A stretch of DNA of 64,000 bases from Provencibacterium sp. (GTDB lineage: Bacteria > Bacillota > Clostridia > Oscillospirales > Ruminococcaceae): NCBI GenBank assembly GCA_022793895.1, contig JAAWDS010000040.1:442-64441 (forward strand). The letters are read 5' to 3'. The notes beneath the pieces are model-generated. The model was not told the DNA's origin, searched no databases, and was given only the letters and a program-made list of their open reading frames with translations. This document shows, one piece after another, positions 3,181 to 9,788 of this stretch; position 1 is the stretch's first letter; each line of letters starts with the position of its first letter. Position numbers and translations under genes: made by a program.

Positions 3181-3252
3181 CTAAGGAAAAGGGGATGGTT
3201 TCTGCTCATTCTTATGCAGGAGGGCAGATAGATAGCAGGAAACTCGGATTTG

Positions 3253-3315
3253 TGGGAGAGCGGAAGATGAATAGGCTGGAACAGTTGCTAGAGGAGCTTT
3301 GCCCGGAGGGGGTGG
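3253..3315. repeat. 63-bp perfect inverted repeat, left copy (RBS + start + first 16 codons of hsdS)
   Basis: tgggagagcggaagatgaataggctggaacagttgctagaggagctttgcccggagggggtgg is identical to the reverse complement of 8683-8745. The first 21 nt also recur as a direct repeat at 4435-4455. Confidence 0.95.
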
Positions 3316-4382
3316 AGTATAAGCCATTATCCGAAATCCTTTTAATTAGAAACGGTCGTGATTACAAGGGTTTTGATAGCGGTGATATTCCGGTTTATGG
3401 ATCGGGCGGAATCATGACCTATATCGATCGGTTTGCTTATGATAAACCGTCGGTACTCATTCCGCGGAAAGGCTCGTTGGAAAAGCTCTATTATGTTGAA
3501 GAACCGTTTTGGACGGTGGATACTCTCTTCTACACAGAAATAGATAGCGCCGTCGCCCTGCCCAAATATGTATTTTACTATCTGCAAATGCTTCATCTAG
3601 AAAAACTTAATAAAGCAGGCGGCGTCCCAAGTTTAACGCAAGCCGTTTTAAATCGTCTAAAAATCCCCGTTCCGCCTCTTCCTATACAAAACGAAATTGT
3701 CTGCATACTGGATAGTTTTGCAGATTCCAATAATGGACTAATCGCATTACTTACCGCCGAGCTTACCGCAAGAGAAAAGCAGTTCGAATATTACAGAGAT
3801 AAGCTATTGACACCTGATAACAATATCCCAAAGCTGCATTTATCCGAATGCTGCACTACAATAGCGGACGGCGATCATCAGCCGCCGCCTAAAAAGGAAA
3901 AGGGGATACCTTTTATTACCATTTCCAATATAACCAACCATAATCAAATCGATTTTTCGAAGACCATGTTTGTTTCTCCGGAATATTATGAGCGCCTCGC
4001 CCATAAACGCAGAGCACAGGCGGGCGATATCTTATATACCGTTGTCGGTTCCTTTGGAATAGCCGTTTACATAGAGACGGATTATAAATTTGTATTTCAA
4101 AGACACATAGCAATCCTACGTCCGGACCGCCGGACAGTGCTTCCTAAATATCTGTATCATGCAATGCAGGCTACCGCTTTTTACTCTCAGGCCGATACCG
4201 CGGCAAAAGGCGCCGCACAAAGGACTATTAGTCTGGCTTCCTTAAACAGAATGGAAATACCTGTTCCACCGCTGGAAGAACAAGCCCGCATCGTCTCGAT
4301 TCTCGACCGCTTCGACGTTCTTTGTAATGATCTCACGAGCGGCCTGCCCCGCCGAAATAGAAGCGCGCCGCAGGCAATATGA
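3267..4382 (+). CDS. hsdS: Type I restriction-modification specificity subunit HsdS, with C-terminal frameshift
   Basis: Two TRDs separated by the conserved central IPVPPLPIQNEIVCILD and the distal IPVPPLEEQARIVSILDRFD. An extra C in the CCCC tract at 4347-4350 shifts the frame. The corrected frame reads SGLPAEIEARRRQYEHYRDKLLRFKEIRNAE and stops at 4432-4434. Confidence 0.85.
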   Translation: MNRLEQLLEELCPEGVEYKPLSEILLIRNGRDYKGFDSGDIPVYGSGGIMTYIDRFAYDKPSVLIPRKGSLEKLYYVEEPFWTVDTLFYTEIDSAVALPKYVFYYLQMLHLEKLNKAGGVPSLTQAVLNRLKIPVPPLPIQNEIVCILDSFADSNNGLIALLTAELTAREKQFEYYRDKLLTPDNNIPKLHLSECCTTIADGDHQPPPKKEKGIPFITISNITNHNQIDFSKTMFVSPEYYERLAHKRRAQAGDILYTVVGSFGIAVYIETDYKFVFQRHIAILRPDRRTVLPKYLYHAMQATAFYSQADTAAKGAAQRTISLASLNRMEIPVPPLEEQARIVSILDRFDVLCNDLTSGLPRRNRSAPQAI

Positions 4383-4448
4383 ACATTACCGGGATAAGCT
4401 GCTGCGTTTTAAAGAGATTCGGAATGCAGAATGATGGGAGAGCGGAAG

Positions 4449-4573
4449 ATGAATACAATAGAACGGCTGCTAGACAGGCTTTGCATGGAGAGGGCGGCGT
4501 GTGCCTAGAACGATTGGTGAAGATAAAGCCTCCAACCGGATCTACCGCAGCCGGAGATCTTTTAAATCCCTAA
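4449..4573 (+). pseudogene. Remnant of a third hsdS (N-terminal about 40 codons, frameshifted and truncated)
   Basis: It is preceded by the same tgggagagcggaag RBS block. It reads MNTIERLLDRLC..., then in another frame GVCLERLVKIKPP, resembling an HsdS N-terminus. No TRD follows. Confidence 0.6.
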
Positions 4574-4580
4574 CACATAA

Positions 4581-4627
4581 AAAAACGGCTTGTCCCCTTT
4601 TTATAAAAAGAGGAACAAGCCGTTTTT
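4581..4627. terminator. Bidirectional terminator / near-perfect 47-nt palindrome
   Basis: aaaaacggcttgt...acaagccgttttt with an inner A/T-rich palindrome. It sits between convergent hsdS remnant (+) and the DUF2461 gene (-). Confidence 0.75.
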
Positions 4628-4643
4628 CTTTGCCGATAGCCGT

Positions 4644-5327
4644 CTATCGGGCTGGCATTTCAAAGCCGGCCAGCGCCCGGTTGAGATAATCGTTGAAGGG
4701 CTTCATCAGCCGGAAAATCTTTGCCGCCTTCGTCAAAAACGCCCCGGCATCGCCAAGCTCCGCGTCCGGAATGGGGTATTCCAGATACCAGCTTTTGTGC
4801 TTCAAAAACGCCGCCTGAGGGTGATCCTTGTCATACCCGGAGGGCACATTTTTGAGCGCTGTGCCGCCAACGGTAAAATGCTGCTGAAATTCTGGGTCGC
4901 GGAGGATGGCCTCCCACTCCTCACCTTGGGCGGCGATCGCTTCCCGTACCATCTGGGTGGCGTCTTTAAACATATCGGCAAAGAGCCCGCCTCCAAGGAA
5001 GGAGCGATCTCCAGGTTTTAGCATCAGATAATACCCCACCGGGATAGGCAGCTTGCCCTTGGAGGAAATGTGCGCCCGGAAGGCGGGGTTATAAGGGGAT
5101 TTGTCGTGGCTAAAGCGGGTGTCCCGCGTGAGCTTGAAGGTCAGCTCTTTGGGGGAGTAGGGGAGAACGCTGCTGTCAAACTCCCCGATTTTTAAAATAA
5201 GGGCTTGTACCAGCTCTTCAAAGTGAGCGTTGGCGGCCTGGTAGTCCGCCTTGTGGGCGTGGTACCATTCCCGGCTGTTGTTCACGCTGAGATCGTTTAG
5301 GTAGCTCAATATCCGATCGGTATTCAT
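4644..5327 (-). CDS. DUF2461 (TIGR02453) family protein
   Basis: MNTDRILSYLNDLSVNNSREWYHAHKADY...FRLTRDTRFSHDKSPY...GYYLMLKPG...GGGLF are typical DUF2461 signatures. GGAGG RBS before ATG 5327. Confidence 0.8.
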   Translation of the reverse strand: MNTDRILSYLNDLSVNNSREWYHAHKADYQAANAHFEELVQALILKIGEFDSSVLPYSPKELTFKLTRDTRFSHDKSPYNPAFRAHISSKGKLPIPVGYYLMLKPGDRSFLGGGLFADMFKDATQMVREAIAAQGEEWEAILRDPEFQQHFTVGGTALKNVPSGYDKDHPQAAFLKHKSWYLEYPIPDAELGDAGAFLTKAAKIFRLMKPFNDYLNRALAGFEMPAR

Positions 5328-5340
5328 CTTCCTTACCTCC

Positions 5341-6186
5341 CTATGCTTGTGTGACGACAGCAAATGCGGTTCCATTCAGAAAGTCCTGGATGAATTGCTT
5401 CAAGCGTTCCGGGGATTGATAGGTCCGGCAGAAGGAGAATTGTTGGGAATAGCCGTCGATCTCCTCCATGGCCGCCTTCACGTCTAAAGCGGAGCCGCCA
5501 GGCTGCGCGGTGGTGAAATCCAACTGCGTGGGCGTGATGCGATGGTTCTGAATCGCATAATGGATCCGGTCGCGGCAGCGGCAGGCTCCGTGTCCGTATT
5601 CGCCGCAGTATTCCGAGAGGAAATCCGCCATTTTTTTGCGTATCCGGGAGAGCCGTTGGCGGTAGGCTTCCGGGGAGATACCTAAGATATCCCCAGCAAT
5701 GCGGCTGTCCAGCCGAAACATGGTGCCCAGGATAAAGATGCACCGGCTTTCCGCGTCCAGGCATTGAAGCATGACGTTTGTACAGGAGAGCCTCAGCTCC
5801 TCCGCCAGAAGGGCCTTGTCCACATTTTGGCTCAGATCGGGAATGTCCTGAAGGTTTCCGTTTTGGATGTCGTCCCCATAGAACTCAAAGCTCAGCGGGA
5901 ATTGGGCGAAAATGTGTTTTTTATAGCTGGTCAGGTGGTTCACAGCAATGCGGAACACCCAGGTGGTGAAGGCGCTTTCCCCTTTGAAGGAGGAGAGATG
6001 GGTCACGACTTTCAGCAGAATATCCTGGGATGCGTCCTCTGCGTCGTGGAAGGTACCCAGCATCCGCAGGGAGAGATTAAAAACCAGGTCCTGCACGCTT
6101 TCCAATACCGTTTCCAGCGCCGTCTTGTCTCCGGCGGTCGCACGTTGGATCAAAAGGGATAACTCCCGGTTTGTTTCTTCGTTCAT
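5341..6186 (-). CDS. RNA polymerase sigma-70 family (ECF-like) sigma factor with about 100 aa C-terminal extension
   Basis: Region 2 (DAEDASQDILLKV...FTTWVFRIAVN) and region 4 HTH (IAGDILGISPEAYRQRLSRIRKKM), followed by CGEYGHGACRCRDRI and about 80 more residues. AGGAGG RBS. Its stop lies 13 nt before the DUF2461 start. Confidence 0.8.
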   Translation of the reverse strand: MNEETNRELSLLIQRATAGDKTALETVLESVQDLVFNLSLRMLGTFHDAEDASQDILLKVVTHLSSFKGESAFTTWVFRIAVNHLTSYKKHIFAQFPLSFEFYGDDIQNGNLQDIPDLSQNVDKALLAEELRLSCTNVMLQCLDAESRCIFILGTMFRLDSRIAGDILGISPEAYRQRLSRIRKKMADFLSEYCGEYGHGACRCRDRIHYAIQNHRITPTQLDFTTAQPGGSALDVKAAMEEIDGYSQQFSFCRTYQSPERLKQFIQDFLNGTAFAVVTQA

Positions 6187-6422
6187 CGAAAACACCTCCT
6201 ATAGAATTAGACGGCGCTGAAGCCGGCTTGTGACAGAAAAGCCGCTTTTTTTGCCAACAATTTTTCAATCCTTTCCAGCTTTGAGCGAAAGCCGCCCGGC
6301 CGGCGTCCCCGGATATCAGCGAAACGGGGACCCGGTTTATAAAAGGGATGGATCAGCCGCTCTCATTGTGCTATACTTAGCTTGTGAACAAAGCGGCCGG
6401 TGCAGAGAGGGAGGTATCCGGA

Positions 6423-6956
6423 ATGAAAGGCTTTACGAGAAAGAATCCAATGTTTTCACTTTGCGGCTTGAACTGTTTCCTTTGCTCCATGCACCTCGGC
6501 GGCCATTGCGGCGGCTGCGGGTTTGGCAACCAATCCTGTCCCTTAGCGCGGTGCTCCTTAGAGCACGGCGCGGTAGAATATTGCTTCCAGTGCGCGGAAT
6601 ACCCATGCGAACGATACAGCCATATCGACGCGTATGATTCTTTCATCACCCATCAGAAACAGAAATCGGATTTAGAGAAGGCGCGCCGGATTGGCCTTGA
6701 AGCCTATAACGCGGAACAGAGAAAAAAATCGGAAATATTAGAGCGCCTCTTGAGCCGGTATAACGACGGCCGGAAGAAAACGCTGTTCTGTTTAGCGGTG
6801 AATCTTCTGGAGCTGGATGAGCTGACGGCCATACTCGAACAGGCGGATGCAGAGACCAACGGGCTGCCGGTGAAGGAAAAGGCCGCTTTTGTATCCGCCC
6901 TTTTTCAGAAATATGCCGCCCAAAAGGGGCTTACGCTCAAGCTCCGAAGGAAATGA
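6423..6956 (+). CDS. DUF3795 domain-containing (Cys-rich) protein
   Basis: N-terminal CGLNCFLCSMHLGGHCGGCG...CPLARC...YCFQCAEYPCERY pattern. GGGAGG RBS before ATG 6423. Confidence 0.7.
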   Translation: MKGFTRKNPMFSLCGLNCFLCSMHLGGHCGGCGFGNQSCPLARCSLEHGAVEYCFQCAEYPCERYSHIDAYDSFITHQKQKSDLEKARRIGLEAYNAEQRKKSEILERLLSRYNDGRKKTLFCLAVNLLELDELTAILEQADAETNGLPVKEKAAFVSALFQKYAAQKGLTLKLRRK

Positions 6957-7016
6957 GCCCGGTTTTTAACTAAAACCGGGCCAGGGAAAAATCCGCCTTA
7001 GCAAGCAAGCTATCGG

Positions 7017-7601
7017 TTACACATTCTGATAAAACAGGCCGTGCTGCGTACAGTACCACAGCAGCCGTCCGTGGGCGAAGGCGGGGATTCTTACCTGCAA
7101 GTCCCACTCCGGGTATTGCTTGCGCAGCAGAAGGCTATCTCCCGTCAATAGGGCGACAAACGCGATGTAGTGCTCCCGCGTCATGGGATGATCGGCGGTA
7201 ACGAACAGGTCGTTTTCCACCGTCTCCACCGATAGTTTTTCCATTTCATCCGCCTTTTGCGGCAGCATGGGCTTCAATTTTTTGCCGCAGCAGGAAACTG
7301 CGGTCTCTGCCATAGCGGCGACGGTATTCCCGCAGGCCGGGCAGATGTAGAAAGCTGTCTTTTTCATATTGCCTCCTAAAATCTCATTTTCGTCTAATTC
7401 CCCGGAAAGCAGCTTTTCCAGGTCTGCCTCCAGCAGCTCCGACAGGCGGGCAAGGGAAGATATATCCGGGCATCCCCAGCCGCGCTCCCACTTTGAAACT
7501 GCTTTATCGCTTACGTTCATCTGCGCTGCAAGCTGCTGCTGGGTGAAATGCTTCTCTTTTCGCAGCTTGCGGATCGCCTGTCCGATTTTAACGTTGTCCA
7601 T
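7017..7601 (-). CDS. XRE-family HTH regulator fused to a desulfoferrodoxin/SOR-like domain
   Basis: N-terminus IGQAIRKLRKEKHFTQQQLAAQMNVSDKAVSKWERG (Cro/C1 HTH). C-terminus has YICPACGN (Dx-like zinc ribbon), HPMTREHYIAFV and YCTQHGLF (SOR iron-site signatures). The usual EKHVP histidine reads EKLSV. Confidence 0.75.
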   Translation of the reverse strand: MDNVKIGQAIRKLRKEKHFTQQQLAAQMNVSDKAVSKWERGWGCPDISSLARLSELLEADLEKLLSGELDENEILGGNMKKTAFYICPACGNTVAAMAETAVSCCGKKLKPMLPQKADEMEKLSVETVENDLFVTADHPMTREHYIAFVALLTGDSLLLRKQYPEWDLQVRIPAFAHGRLLWYCTQHGLFYQNV

Positions 7602-8731
7602 GGCGGTGCTCCTCCCCGGTTAAAGTCTAGCAGCTTATTCCGGTAATATTCATATTGCTTTCGCCGCGCTTCGATCTCGGCGGGCAGGCCGCTGGTTGGG
7701 TCGCCAACAAGAGCGTCGAAGCGGTCGAGAATCGAAACAATGCGGGCCTGTTCTTCTTCGGATGGAAAAGGTAATGTTATCCGTTTTATCTCTCCCCCCG
7801 TGATAAGCGGCTGTACGCCGCCTTTGGCATAACGGCGAAGATCGATATTGACAAGCTGATAATAGATATATTTCAAGTTGTACCGGTCCTTTAGATCGAT
7901 AATCAGCGTGTTATCGGATACGTCATATTCCCCTTCTGCAATGTAAACATATCCGGCAGAACCAACGCGGGCGACTAAGATGTTTTTCTTTTTATAGACA
8001 GCTTTATTGGTCCTGGCAATCATACCGGTTGAGCCGTACACCGGATACATTCCTATTTTGTCTTTTGTTTTCGCCCTTCCGGAAGAGATCGAACGGCTAA
8101 TTTCTCCCAATGTCCGCCAGCTGATTTCTGCATGCCGCTCTTTTATAGATGCAGATGGAAGATTATTGTCCAAACACAAGAGGAACTGCCGGTAATAGTC
8201 ATATTGTTTTCTTCTCATGGCGAGCTCTGCGGCAAGTTTCTCAGTAAGCTCCGAAAAATGATCCAGTATGCGGACGATTTCCGTTTGTATGGGGAGAGGG
8301 GGGATGGGAACCTCGATACTACGCATATCCTGCTGGTTCATTTTGGGCGGCGTTCCGTGAACCAGGCCCCCAATATTTGTTGTCTGTAGATAGTAATAAA
8401 GAAAACGCAGTAAGACTCCTTCTTTTTCACTGAGGATATGAGCGTGATTGTTTACCCATATTTTCCCCACCGCCCATGTAAGAATAGGGCTTTTATCTTT
8501 ATGGATGACGCTTCCATCTTCCCCCATTAAAAGAAAAGTACCGTCAAAAATATAGTCGTTTACATAATCCTGAATTCCGTTTGCCCCGTAATATGGATAT
8601 TTGCCTGTGGTACGGTTTTTCTTCGTAACGGGCTTTCGCCGGCTGTCAAGGATATGGCAGACCTCGCCGAGCGGCCTATACGCCACCCCCTCCGGGCAAA
8701 GCTCCTCTAGCAACTGTTCCAGCCTATTCAT
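7517..8731 (-). CDS. hsdS: Type I restriction-modification specificity subunit HsdS (3' end reads through into the neighbouring gene)
   Basis: MNRLEQLLEELCPEGVAYRPLGEV..., central IEVPIPPLPIQTEIVRILDHF, distal LPFPSEEEQARIVSILDRFDAL...SGLPAEIEARRKQYEYYRNKLLDF. The ORF then continues 30 codons into the HTH gene, overlapping it at 7517-7601. Confidence 0.88.
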   Translation of the reverse strand: MNRLEQLLEELCPEGVAYRPLGEVCHILDSRRKPVTKKNRTTGKYPYYGANGIQDYVNDYIFDGTFLLMGEDGSVIHKDKSPILTWAVGKIWVNNHAHILSEKEGVLLRFLYYYLQTTNIGGLVHGTPPKMNQQDMRSIEVPIPPLPIQTEIVRILDHFSELTEKLAAELAMRRKQYDYYRQFLLCLDNNLPSASIKERHAEISWRTLGEISRSISSGRAKTKDKIGMYPVYGSTGMIARTNKAVYKKKNILVARVGSAGYVYIAEGEYDVSDNTLIIDLKDRYNLKYIYYQLVNIDLRRYAKGGVQPLITGGEIKRITLPFPSEEEQARIVSILDRFDALVGDPTSGLPAEIEARRKQYEYYRNKLLDFNRGGAPPWTTLKSDRRSASCEKRSISPSSSLQRR

Positions 8732-8745
8732 CTTCCGCTCTCCCA
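8683..8745. repeat. 63-bp perfect inverted repeat, right copy
   Basis: Reverse complement identical to 3253-3315. Confidence 0.95.
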
Positions 8746-8780
8746 TAATTCTGAATCTCTTCCTTTCCGCCCTCCCTCTC

Positions 8781-8809
8781 ATTATAGGCGAAAAGCCTCC
8801 TGATTACAA
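8781..8809 (-). promoter_or_regulatory. Candidate sigma-A promoter of hsdS2
   Basis: The minus strand reads TTGTAA, 17 nt, TATAAT, about 45 nt upstream of the start. Confidence 0.55.
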
Positions 8810-8862: not shown

Positions 8863-8975
8863 TGTGGTATAATAGCCGCAGGCGGCTATTATACGTTGAT
8901 TTATTTGGCCGCCCTACGGGCATGGCCAATTATACCATAATCGCTTCGCATTTATGGTATAATAGCCGCATAGCG
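8863..8975. repeat. Hairpin-rich intergenic repeat, copy B (inverted relative to copy A)
   Basis: Hairpin 8867-8894, then the 30-nt core 8899-8928 (reverse complement of 1631-1660), then a 12-bp-stem hairpin attataccataa...ttatggtataat and another tggtataatagccgc unit at 8955-8970. Confidence 0.85.
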
Positions 8976-9692: not shown

Positions 9693-9782
9693 CAAAGGGC
9701 GTGCCCGCAAAACTGTCGTTTTGCGGGCACGCCCTTTGGAAAAACGGTTTTCAGGGCGAAGAAACCGCCCTGAAAACCGTTT
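9693..9782. terminator. Two consecutive long perfect hairpins between convergent genes
   Basis: 9693-9738 has a stem of about 21 bp (caaagggcgtgcccgcaaaac/gttttgcgggcacgccctttg). 9742-9782 has a 17 bp stem (aaacggttttcagggcg/cgccctgaaaaccgttt). Confidence 0.7.
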
Positions 9783-9788
9783 ATCTGA

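Follow-up and report, generated by a model that had tools for sequence, protein, structure and literature searches.

Two inverted hsdS genes with a perfect 63-bp repeat in Provencibacterium sp.: a probable remnant of a type I restriction-modification specificity array

A stretch of 64,000 nucleotides (nt) of DNA from the gut bacterium Provencibacterium sp. (hereafter, the window) carries two genes for HsdS, the specificity subunit of type I restriction-modification (R-M) systems, that lie in inverted orientation and begin with the same 63 nt. We propose, with rather more confidence than doubt, that this locus is what is left, stranded and in part decayed, of a multi-hsdS array that belonged to an EcoR124-like type I R-M system; its ancestor was presumably a shufflon, and it would since have lost that function. 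This proposal draws on the repeats, the disruptions of both hsdS genes, the missing partner genes in the window, the same orientation of the locus in two assemblies, and the occurrence elsewhere of the sigma factor-DUF2461 operon that here lies between the two genes. An initial annotation of the same DNA had wavered between a decayed shufflon and an unusual invertible module. The first option gains support from the frameshift or frameshifts in hsdS1, the 3' loss in hsdS2, the stub of a further copy, the degenerate central repeat, and the shared orientation. Three features had gone unremarked there, namely, the frameshift in hsdS1, the loss of the 3' end of hsdS2, and an outer palindromic repeat that encloses the locus.

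The hsdS genes and their inverted repeats

The elements of the locus on which the argument turns are as follows (TRD, target recognition domain; RBS, ribosome-binding site).

3267-4382, + strand: hsdS1, two-TRD HsdS, frameshifted, probable pseudogene (Pfam Methylase_S, two stretches)
7517-8731, - strand: hsdS2, two-TRD HsdS, open frame (Pfam Methylase_S, two stretches)
4434-4508, + strand: 5' stub of a third hsdS, in tandem right behind the corrected end of hsdS1
3253-3315, + strand: left repeat arm, with 14 nt of leader including the RBS, the ATG at 3267, and 16 hsdS1 codons
8683-8745, - strand: right repeat arm, with leader, the ATG at 8731, and 16 hsdS2 codons
3666-3724, + strand: central conserved region of hsdS1, pairing with 8250-8308
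4296-4317, + strand: distal 22-nt block TCGATTCTCGACCGCTTCGACG (encoding SILDRFD) in hsdS1, inverted partner of 7714-7735
7714-7735, - strand: distal 22-nt block in hsdS2, exact partner of 4296-4317
8781-8809, - strand: promoter-like site upstream of hsdS2 (TTGTAA, 17-nt spacer, TATAAT; 10/12, a consensus match only)

Both hsdS genes have the two-TRD layout that the initial annotation ascribed to them: the Pfam Methylase_S model matches each in two stretches (E-values of 7e-37 and 1e-46 for the two open reading frames [ORFs]), and the PADLOC Type I specificity models match both from end to end. The inverted identity of their 5' ends is likewise borne out, with 3253-3315 agreeing with the reverse complement of 8683-8745 at 63 of 63 positions; a weaker likeness reaches further on both sides, at 86% identity over 3220-3325 and 8673-8778. 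Just inside the repeat, the sequence reads AGTATAAGCC on the hsdS1 side and CGTATAGGCC on the hsdS2 side, and the left flank ends in ...GGATTTG.

The identity of the two arms goes beyond what coding constraint would impose. A codon-by-codon alignment of hsdS1 and hsdS2 has 71 positions in the central and C-terminal conserved blocks at which the amino acid agrees, and at 46 of these the codon agrees too; over the first 16 codons, this holds for 16/16, and the 14 untranslated nt upstream are identical as well (p roughly 1e-3 or less). The third hsdS start, which serves as a yardstick of ordinary divergence, shows 79% identity. Hence, the agreement of all 16 codons together with the 14 leader nt indicates that the 5' ends of hsdS1 and hsdS2 were homogenized recently, presumably by recombination or gene conversion.

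The remaining repeats are of lesser quality. The distal 22-nt block is exact at 4296-4317 and 7714-7735, as had been claimed, and its two copies share an identical codon phase; judged as part of a conserved coding stretch at 76% identity, it is marginally unexpected (estimated p ~0.06) and does not clearly exceed what such a stretch would be predicted to contain. The exact inverted matches at the locus are, then, one of 63 bp with copies ~5.4 kb apart and one of 22 bp with copies ~3.4 kb apart. The central conserved regions, 3666-3724 and 8250-8308, have 78% identity and nowhere agree over 12 or more consecutive nt. In hsdS shufflons, the central conserved region is the site at which TRDs are reassorted. 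With a central repeat that is only 78% identical, inversions at the present locus cannot form new TRD combinations.

The third hsdS start, reported earlier as a remnant, is real. Its first 22 nt (4434-4455) are identical to part of the hsdS2 arm and the nucleotide beside it (8725-8746), and 21 of these (4435-4455) are also found in the hsdS1 arm; compared with 3253-3318, it shows 79% identity over 66 nt, and its frame meets a stop after 19 codons. The 21-mer common to all three starts, TGGGAGAGCGGAAGATGAATA, is present in exactly three copies in the window (0.00 expected by chance) and has no match in the GTDB species representatives or in metagenome contigs; a plasmid megablast of the locus also returned no match. 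All three starts carry an ATGA motif and ~45 nt of weakly similar leader. The leader of the third copy is the 3' end of hsdS1, and the leader upstream of the hsdS starts is more like this 3' end than like HsdM C-termini, which favors tandem hsdS-hsdS junctions and suggests that the hsdS unit may have spread in that form. The idea that the sequence upstream of the hsdS starts is a remnant of the 3' end of hsdM appears less likely, as the peptides of the TGA frame (...DLWESGR before the stop) are unlike the HsdM C-termini of relatives.

Disruption of the hsdS genes

hsdS1 carries a +1 frameshift, in the form of an extra C in the C4 run at 4346-4349, which exchanges its C-terminal conserved helix for RRNRSAPQAI and a stop codon. 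With one C removed, the gene reads ...SGLPAEIEARRRQYEHYRDKLLRFKEIRNAE up to its stop, aligns with hsdS2, and terminates at the TGA at 4431-4433, just before the third start. We compared the locus across the following sources: contig Ga0531673_0000632 (83,183 nt) of JGI metagenome 3300051405, at whose position 369 the window starts; a metagenome-assembled genome (MAG) at NCBI, with locus tags HFG26_xxxxx and proteins MCI86239xx; and Logan unitigs from individual sequencing runs. The NCBI MAG protein MCI8623945 (Provencibacterium sp.) is the same truncated product of 371 amino acids (aa), the JGI contig also has the frameshift, and the stretch around it is the same in unitigs of five or more sequencing runs. 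The recurrence of the same truncated product in an independent MAG and in the unitigs implies that the frameshift is real and did not arise from an error of sequencing. In SRR22050027 and SRR22050028, which represent a second haplotype, an additional +G after 3654 breaks hsdS1 in two.

In hsdS2, homology to other hsdS genes ends at ~7620 (...KLLDF), and the native stop codon has been lost; its ORF continues through 30 or more codons of foreign sequence, running through the RBS and start of the neighboring XRE gene. Of hsdS2, the annotation of the NCBI MAG includes just the C-terminal 233 aa, which suggests a lesion in the 5' half of the gene in that strain. Across all of the Logan unitigs, hsdS2 is identical, and hsdS1 and the intervening genes carry substitutions.

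Missing partner genes and relatives of the HsdS proteins

A Pfam scan of ~60 ORFs over the whole 64-kb window gave no match to N6_Mtase/HsdM_N, HSDR_N/ResIII, Phage_integrase, or Resolvase, in agreement with the earlier observation that hsdM, hsdR, and a recombinase are missing. This view covers 64 kb of an ~83-kb contig, and the stretch free of hsdM, hsdR, and invertase genes extends for at least 55 kb on one side of the locus. The rest of the window is ordinary chromosomal DNA, with thiamine genes, glycosidases, IMP dehydrogenase, FtsEX/PcsB-like genes, and ABC transporters.

Relatives of the two HsdS proteins are differently placed. Two of the closest ones, those whose contigs were looked up (loci L091 and L094; 57-59% identity), lie in canonical hsdM-hsdS or hsdM-hsdS-hsdR operons, in which the hsdR product has an EcoR124_C domain and hsdM and hsdS overlap by ATGA. 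On the strength of these operons with an EcoR124_C-containing HsdR, the HsdS family can be considered type IC-like (EcoR124-like). The features of this group are present here, namely, two TRDs, central and C-terminal conserved helices, and a short N-terminal region, with hsdS1 lacking the C-terminal helix. Indeed, the HsdS proteins of the window share their architecture and 57-60% full-length identity with those of canonical EcoR124-like operons of gut Firmicutes and Bacteroidota, along with the N-terminal motif M-x-[RK]-L-x-[EQ]-L-[IL]-x-x-L-C-P-x-G-V-[EA]-[YF], and the ATGA at the hsdS starts stands at the position of the hsdM-stop/hsdS-start overlap in those operons. Unlike in those operons, however, neither hsdS gene of the window is preceded by hsdM.

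Many of the best homologs of hsdS2 are 560-620 aa long (P0001, 574 aa; P0002, 562 aa; P0011-P0034, ~580-620 aa), i.e., ~200 aa longer than a two-TRD HsdS. Judging from their length, these may be specificity subunits with three TRDs or fusions; one of them, P0001, lies in a normal hsdM-hsdS-hsdR operon.

Orientation of the segment between the repeats

Gene order and orientation agree between the JGI contig and the NCBI MAG, and neither is broken at the repeat; in the MAG, they are judged from the consecutive accessions MCI8623944-51, which correspond to DUF5655, hsdS1, two genes, DUF3795, XRE, hsdS2, and nitroreductase. Two Logan unitigs (L082 and L083) span exactly 3286-8712, thus covering the interior together with 30 nt from either arm, and this interior is reproduced at 99.8-100% identity in unitigs from independent runs. 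Contigs that end inside the repeat arms were considered as a sign of inversion, and this sign was discarded, as any repeat longer than k = 31 yields the same ends. Unitigs from several runs cross the 22-nt block and the central region unbroken, always with the same junctions. Further, no protein with one TRD from hsdS1 and another from hsdS2 was found in a collection of 5.8 billion proteins, which is weak evidence, since the species is rare there.

Origin of the locus and alternative explanations

We suggest the following history for the locus. The array would once have contained both tandem and inverted hsdS copies, as in known hsdS shufflons, of which there would be left over a frameshifted hsdS1, the 5' stub behind it, and an inverted hsdS2 whose 3' end was deleted at the junction with resident genes. 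The 63-bp identity would be the trace of a recent event in which the two 5' ends recombined or underwent gene conversion. A repeat of this length could still permit an occasional inversion of 5.4 kb, either by homologous recombination or through a recombinase encoded elsewhere; such a crossover would invert 3316-8682, so that the two hsdS bodies would trade places behind the hsdS2 promoter and the methyltransferase-DUF5655 operon. hsdS2 may remain expressed, may drive the downstream XRE gene, and could in principle serve an HsdM/HsdR (M/R) pair encoded elsewhere. The inversion put forward in the initial annotation is sound in its geometry (a flip of ~5.4 kb that swaps the promoter contexts), and its consequence would be small, in that neither protein changes.

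Several points weigh against such a history. The perfect 63-bp identity is just what actively inverting hsdS loci show. The intact two-TRD frame of hsdS2, its freedom from substitutions across strains, and its good promoter match are signs that it may be functional. The orientation sample consists of two assemblies and is very small, and the unitigs say nothing on orientation, because with k = 31, shorter than the 63-nt repeat, they end in the arms at any such repeat. The contig ends 368 nt to the left of the window, and hsdM and hsdR could sit just past recQ, the gene near that edge, or elsewhere in the genome. Finally, loci lacking an adjacent invertase, as well as inversion independent of known recombinases, have been documented (PMC7672463, PMC6620402). 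Since switching without an invertase is known, the missing recombinase is not decisive by itself; the missing methyltransferase and the frameshifts weigh more.

Of the other explanations, the one that survives best, and that we regard as possible though distinctly less probable, is that hsdS2 is a single working orphan S subunit that serves hsdM and hsdR products encoded elsewhere, with hsdS1 and the stub dead and the 63-bp identity left by a one-off gene conversion, with no switching. The intact frame of hsdS2 and its lack of differences over all unitigs, unlike hsdS1 and the intervening genes, are what this explanation would lead one to expect, although zero differences over 1.2 kb in near-clonal strains amount to weak evidence of selection. 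The promoter-like site and the full-length Type I specificity matches point the same way. However, the protein has lost its native C-terminal end and acquired a foreign tail of 30 or more residues, the annotation of its C-terminal half alone in the NCBI MAG hints at disruption in that strain, and no partner genes are visible in the window.

An active orphan inverton appears less likely again, and we consider it improbable. In this explanation, crossing over takes place in the 63-bp arms, either through an invertase encoded elsewhere or by frequent exchange without a recombinase, and the 5.4-kb segment flips in the population, which would toggle the hsdS body behind the hsdS2 promoter, retarget a distant M/R pair, and flip the sigma factor and XRE genes relative to the flanking transcription. 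The repeat is perfect and homogenized beyond coding constraint, and it has the properties sought in the screen of Atack et al., i.e., at least 20 bp of 100% identity in a second hsdS (PMC7394358); both trans-acting invertases and multi-hsdS loci without an invertase are known (PMC7672463, PMC6620402). With an RBS and a start codon in both arms, either body would be translatable after inversion, and a promoter-like site is available upstream of hsdS2. Nevertheless, no coding sequence would be altered by the inversion, every sample has the frameshift in hsdS1 and one haplotype has two, the window lacks hsdM, hsdR, and recombinase genes, and both long assemblies have the same orientation and are unbroken at the repeat. 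The stronger version of this idea, in which the locus belongs to a split phase-variable type I system and the 5.4-kb flip, brought about by a trans-acting invertase or frequent recombinase-independent exchange, acts as an ON/OFF or A/B toggle between one intact and one crippled hsdS body behind the right-hand promoter, seems to us quite unlikely; the same low estimate covers its joint consequences, the reprogramming of a distant HsdM/HsdR pair and a concomitant reorientation of the XRE-SOR gene and the sigma factor-DUF2461 operon with respect to the flanking transcription.

A swap of gene tails is very improbable. Here, inversion at the 22-nt block would flip the intervening genes only and would move the frameshifted tail from hsdS1 to hsdS2, always leaving one intact hsdS; as the blocks match exactly and share their codon phase, recombinants would be in frame. 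As against this, 22 identical nt in a 76%-identical conserved block are only marginally unexpected, and the k = 31 unitigs of several runs pass unbroken through the block with the same junctions, no appreciable subpopulation with alternative junctions being seen. That the repeat and the arrangement stem from a chimeric assembly might be suspected from the metagenomic origin of the JGI 3300051405 contig, and is effectively refuted by the reproduction of 3286-8712 at 99.8-100% in unitigs from independent runs and by the same proteins in the same order in the NCBI MAG.

Genes between and upstream of the hsdS pair

The ~3 kb between the two hsdS genes contain the genes that the initial annotation had named. 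These and the neighboring features are listed here (HTH, helix-turn-helix; SAM, S-adenosylmethionine; ECF, extracytoplasmic function).

1972-2754, + strand: class I SAM methyltransferase gene upstream of DUF5655 and hsdS1 (partial PADLOC mad2 match)
4576-4632: bidirectional terminator-like palindrome between the hsdS stub and the DUF2461 gene
4644-5327, - strand: DUF2461 gene, 227 aa as called (Pfam, NCBIfam TIGR02453)
5341-6186, - strand: sigma-70/ECF-type factor gene, 281 aa as called (Pfam, NCBIfam)
6423-6956, + strand: DUF3795 gene (Pfam, NCBIfam)
7017-7601, - strand: XRE-HTH/desulfoferrodoxin-like (XRE-SOR) gene, abutting the truncated hsdS2 3' end
9693-9738 and 9739-9785: long perfect hairpins downstream of the nitroreductase gene (stems of 21 nt and 20 nt)

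The sigma factor has very many homologs of the same length at ~80% (78-82%) aa identity in Anaerotruncus, Oscillibacter, and other Oscillospiraceae. The contigs of one such homolog, looked up in five places, have the same sigma factor-DUF2461 pair with no hsdS nearby. As this pair is a conserved two-gene operon elsewhere without hsdS, it is better understood as resident DNA than as cargo of a shufflon, and the description of the intervening genes as a regulator cargo is correspondingly weakened; the material between the hsdS genes thus seems to be at least partly resident DNA. The sigma factor, whose conservation across many Oscillospiraceae genera is unusually strong, also has a C-terminal extension of ~90 aa, and one of its homologs carries the name Acetatifactor.

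The XRE-SOR gene, which may be cotranscribed with hsdS2, has a perfect internal RBS (AGGAGG) and an ATG at 7367, placed before its desulfoferrodoxin-like part of 116 aa. The strain L084 (SRR31673576) departs from the window to the right of 7481, where a divergent sequence encoding an HTH stands instead, and the 116-aa product is the only one called there; a look-up of this SOR-only product returned the L084 contig only. The right boundary of the middle block therefore differs between strains. It is possible that the XRE-SOR fusion arose recently at a junction and is not a long-standing two-domain protein.

Assignment of the locus to the MADS system was considered on account of PADLOC matches to mad2 (the methyltransferase, E = 5e-14, SAM-binding domain only) and mad5 (HsdS) and was rejected, these being weaker than the generic and type I matches. 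The palindrome at 4576-4632 and the hairpins at 9693-9785 are probably intrinsic terminators, with spurious Rfam microRNA scores.

The low-GC island and its outer palindromic element

The locus lies in an island of low guanine-plus-cytosine (GC) content at about 1.6-9.7 kb (41-55% GC versus 56-67% in the flanks, which contain recQ and the thiamine operon). It begins at a tRNA-Gln gene (1812-1887) beside recQ and ends near the nitroreductase gene, and no integrase or transposase was found within it. In a synteny comparison by means of RecQ, the best relative, Provencibacterium sp. ABMPRH_177_2 (L001; 81% aa identity), has nothing in common with the window beyond recQ and has unrelated genes at the position of the island. 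The island is bracketed by the inverted copies of a second repeat.

1631-1696, + strand: outer inverted repeat, left copy, with hairpin TGGCCATGCCCGTAGGGCGGCCAAATAAAT followed by palindrome GTATAATAGCCGC-TTT-GCGGCTATTATAC
8865-8928 (to 8975 with the extra arm), - strand: outer inverted repeat, right copy, with an additional palindrome arm at 8957-8969

The two copies (~66 nt) are 92-94% identical and enclose the tRNA-Gln gene, the methyltransferase and DUF5655 genes, hsdS1, the middle genes, and hsdS2; arms with GTATAATAGCCGC are found at 1665, 1681, 8867, 8882, and 8957. The element is a hairpin (TGGCCATGCCCGTAGGGCGGCCA) and then a perfect palindrome, GGTATAATAGCCGC-N2-3-GCGGCTATTATACC, with an extended -10 box in each arm. 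At least 120 metagenome contigs contain the palindrome in the form GGTATAATAGCCGC-N2-4-GCGGCTATTATACC; in most cases, a variable GC-rich hairpin comes after it, and some copies are arranged in tandem. No Rfam family matches the outer repeats, clustering of the genes next to 120 metagenome copies of the palindrome revealed no recurring transposase, and the palindrome is absent from the recQ region of the sister species and from 80 other clostridial recQ loci. The element could be a repetitive extragenic palindrome (REP)-like sequence, a miniature inverted-repeat transposable element (MITE)-like sequence, or a bidirectional promoter palindrome.

Relationship to known systems and significance

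Orphan hsdS genes and degraded R-M remnants are found in genomic islands, where they lack adjacent M/R genes, have a low GC content, and carry frameshifts and truncations. The present locus shares all of these properties; unlike passively decaying remnants, however, its copies keep a perfectly homogenized inverted repeat.

The other group with which the locus invites comparison is that of the epigenetic invertons, such as SpnD39III/ivr of Streptococcus pneumoniae, Efa4125I of Enterococcus faecalis (two full hsdS genes and an invertase), Bfa9343I of Bacteroides fragilis, and the loci of Streptococcus suis and Mycoplasma pulmonis (PMC7394358, PMC7672463). Like these, it has at least two hsdS genes in inverted orientation, a perfect repeat over the 5' conserved region (63 bp here; 15, 85, and 33 bp in SpnD39III [PMC7394358]), an additional partial hsdS copy, TRDs that are unrelated between the copies, and frames that are kept on inversion. 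In contrast to them, hsdM, hsdR, and invertase genes are missing from the 64 kb of the window; unrelated genes (~3 kb) separate the hsdS copies; the central repeat is degenerate, with perfect repeats only before TRD1 and after TRD2; one hsdS is frameshifted and the other truncated at the 3' end; a start codon is present in both arms, with no split into expressed and silent copies; and no alternative arrangement was seen in the two assemblies, which have the same orientation. In short, at least two inverted hsdS genes occur at one locus with a 100% inverted repeat of at least 20 bp within 30 kb, and the 64-kb window has no hsdM/hsdR locus and no adjacent invertase, and inversions of the segment would not exchange TRDs. 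An adjacent invertase is not strictly defining for epigenetic invertons (PMC7672463, PMC6620402). As the locus departs on these three points from the fuller description of such elements (PMC7672463), we describe it as a degenerate derivative and not as a member.

We regard the locus as a relic of a familiar type and of modest novelty. If it is a relic, it shows how hsdS shufflons die: the enzyme genes are lost first, and the stranded specificity cassettes may stay homogenized by recombination while gathering frameshifts. It also calls for caution with automated screens for phasevarions: that of Atack et al. looks within 30 kb for a second hsdS that shares an inverted repeat of 20 bp or more at 100% identity (PMC7394358) and would call this locus potentially phase-variable, and where such a repeat in an hsdS pair is equated with phase variability, the present locus would pass. 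If, on the other hand, the 63-bp repeat still inverts in the service of a distant M/R pair, the locus would be a rare phase-variable specificity module set apart from its enzyme genes, which, if true, would be of moderate interest for the epigenetics of gut commensals.

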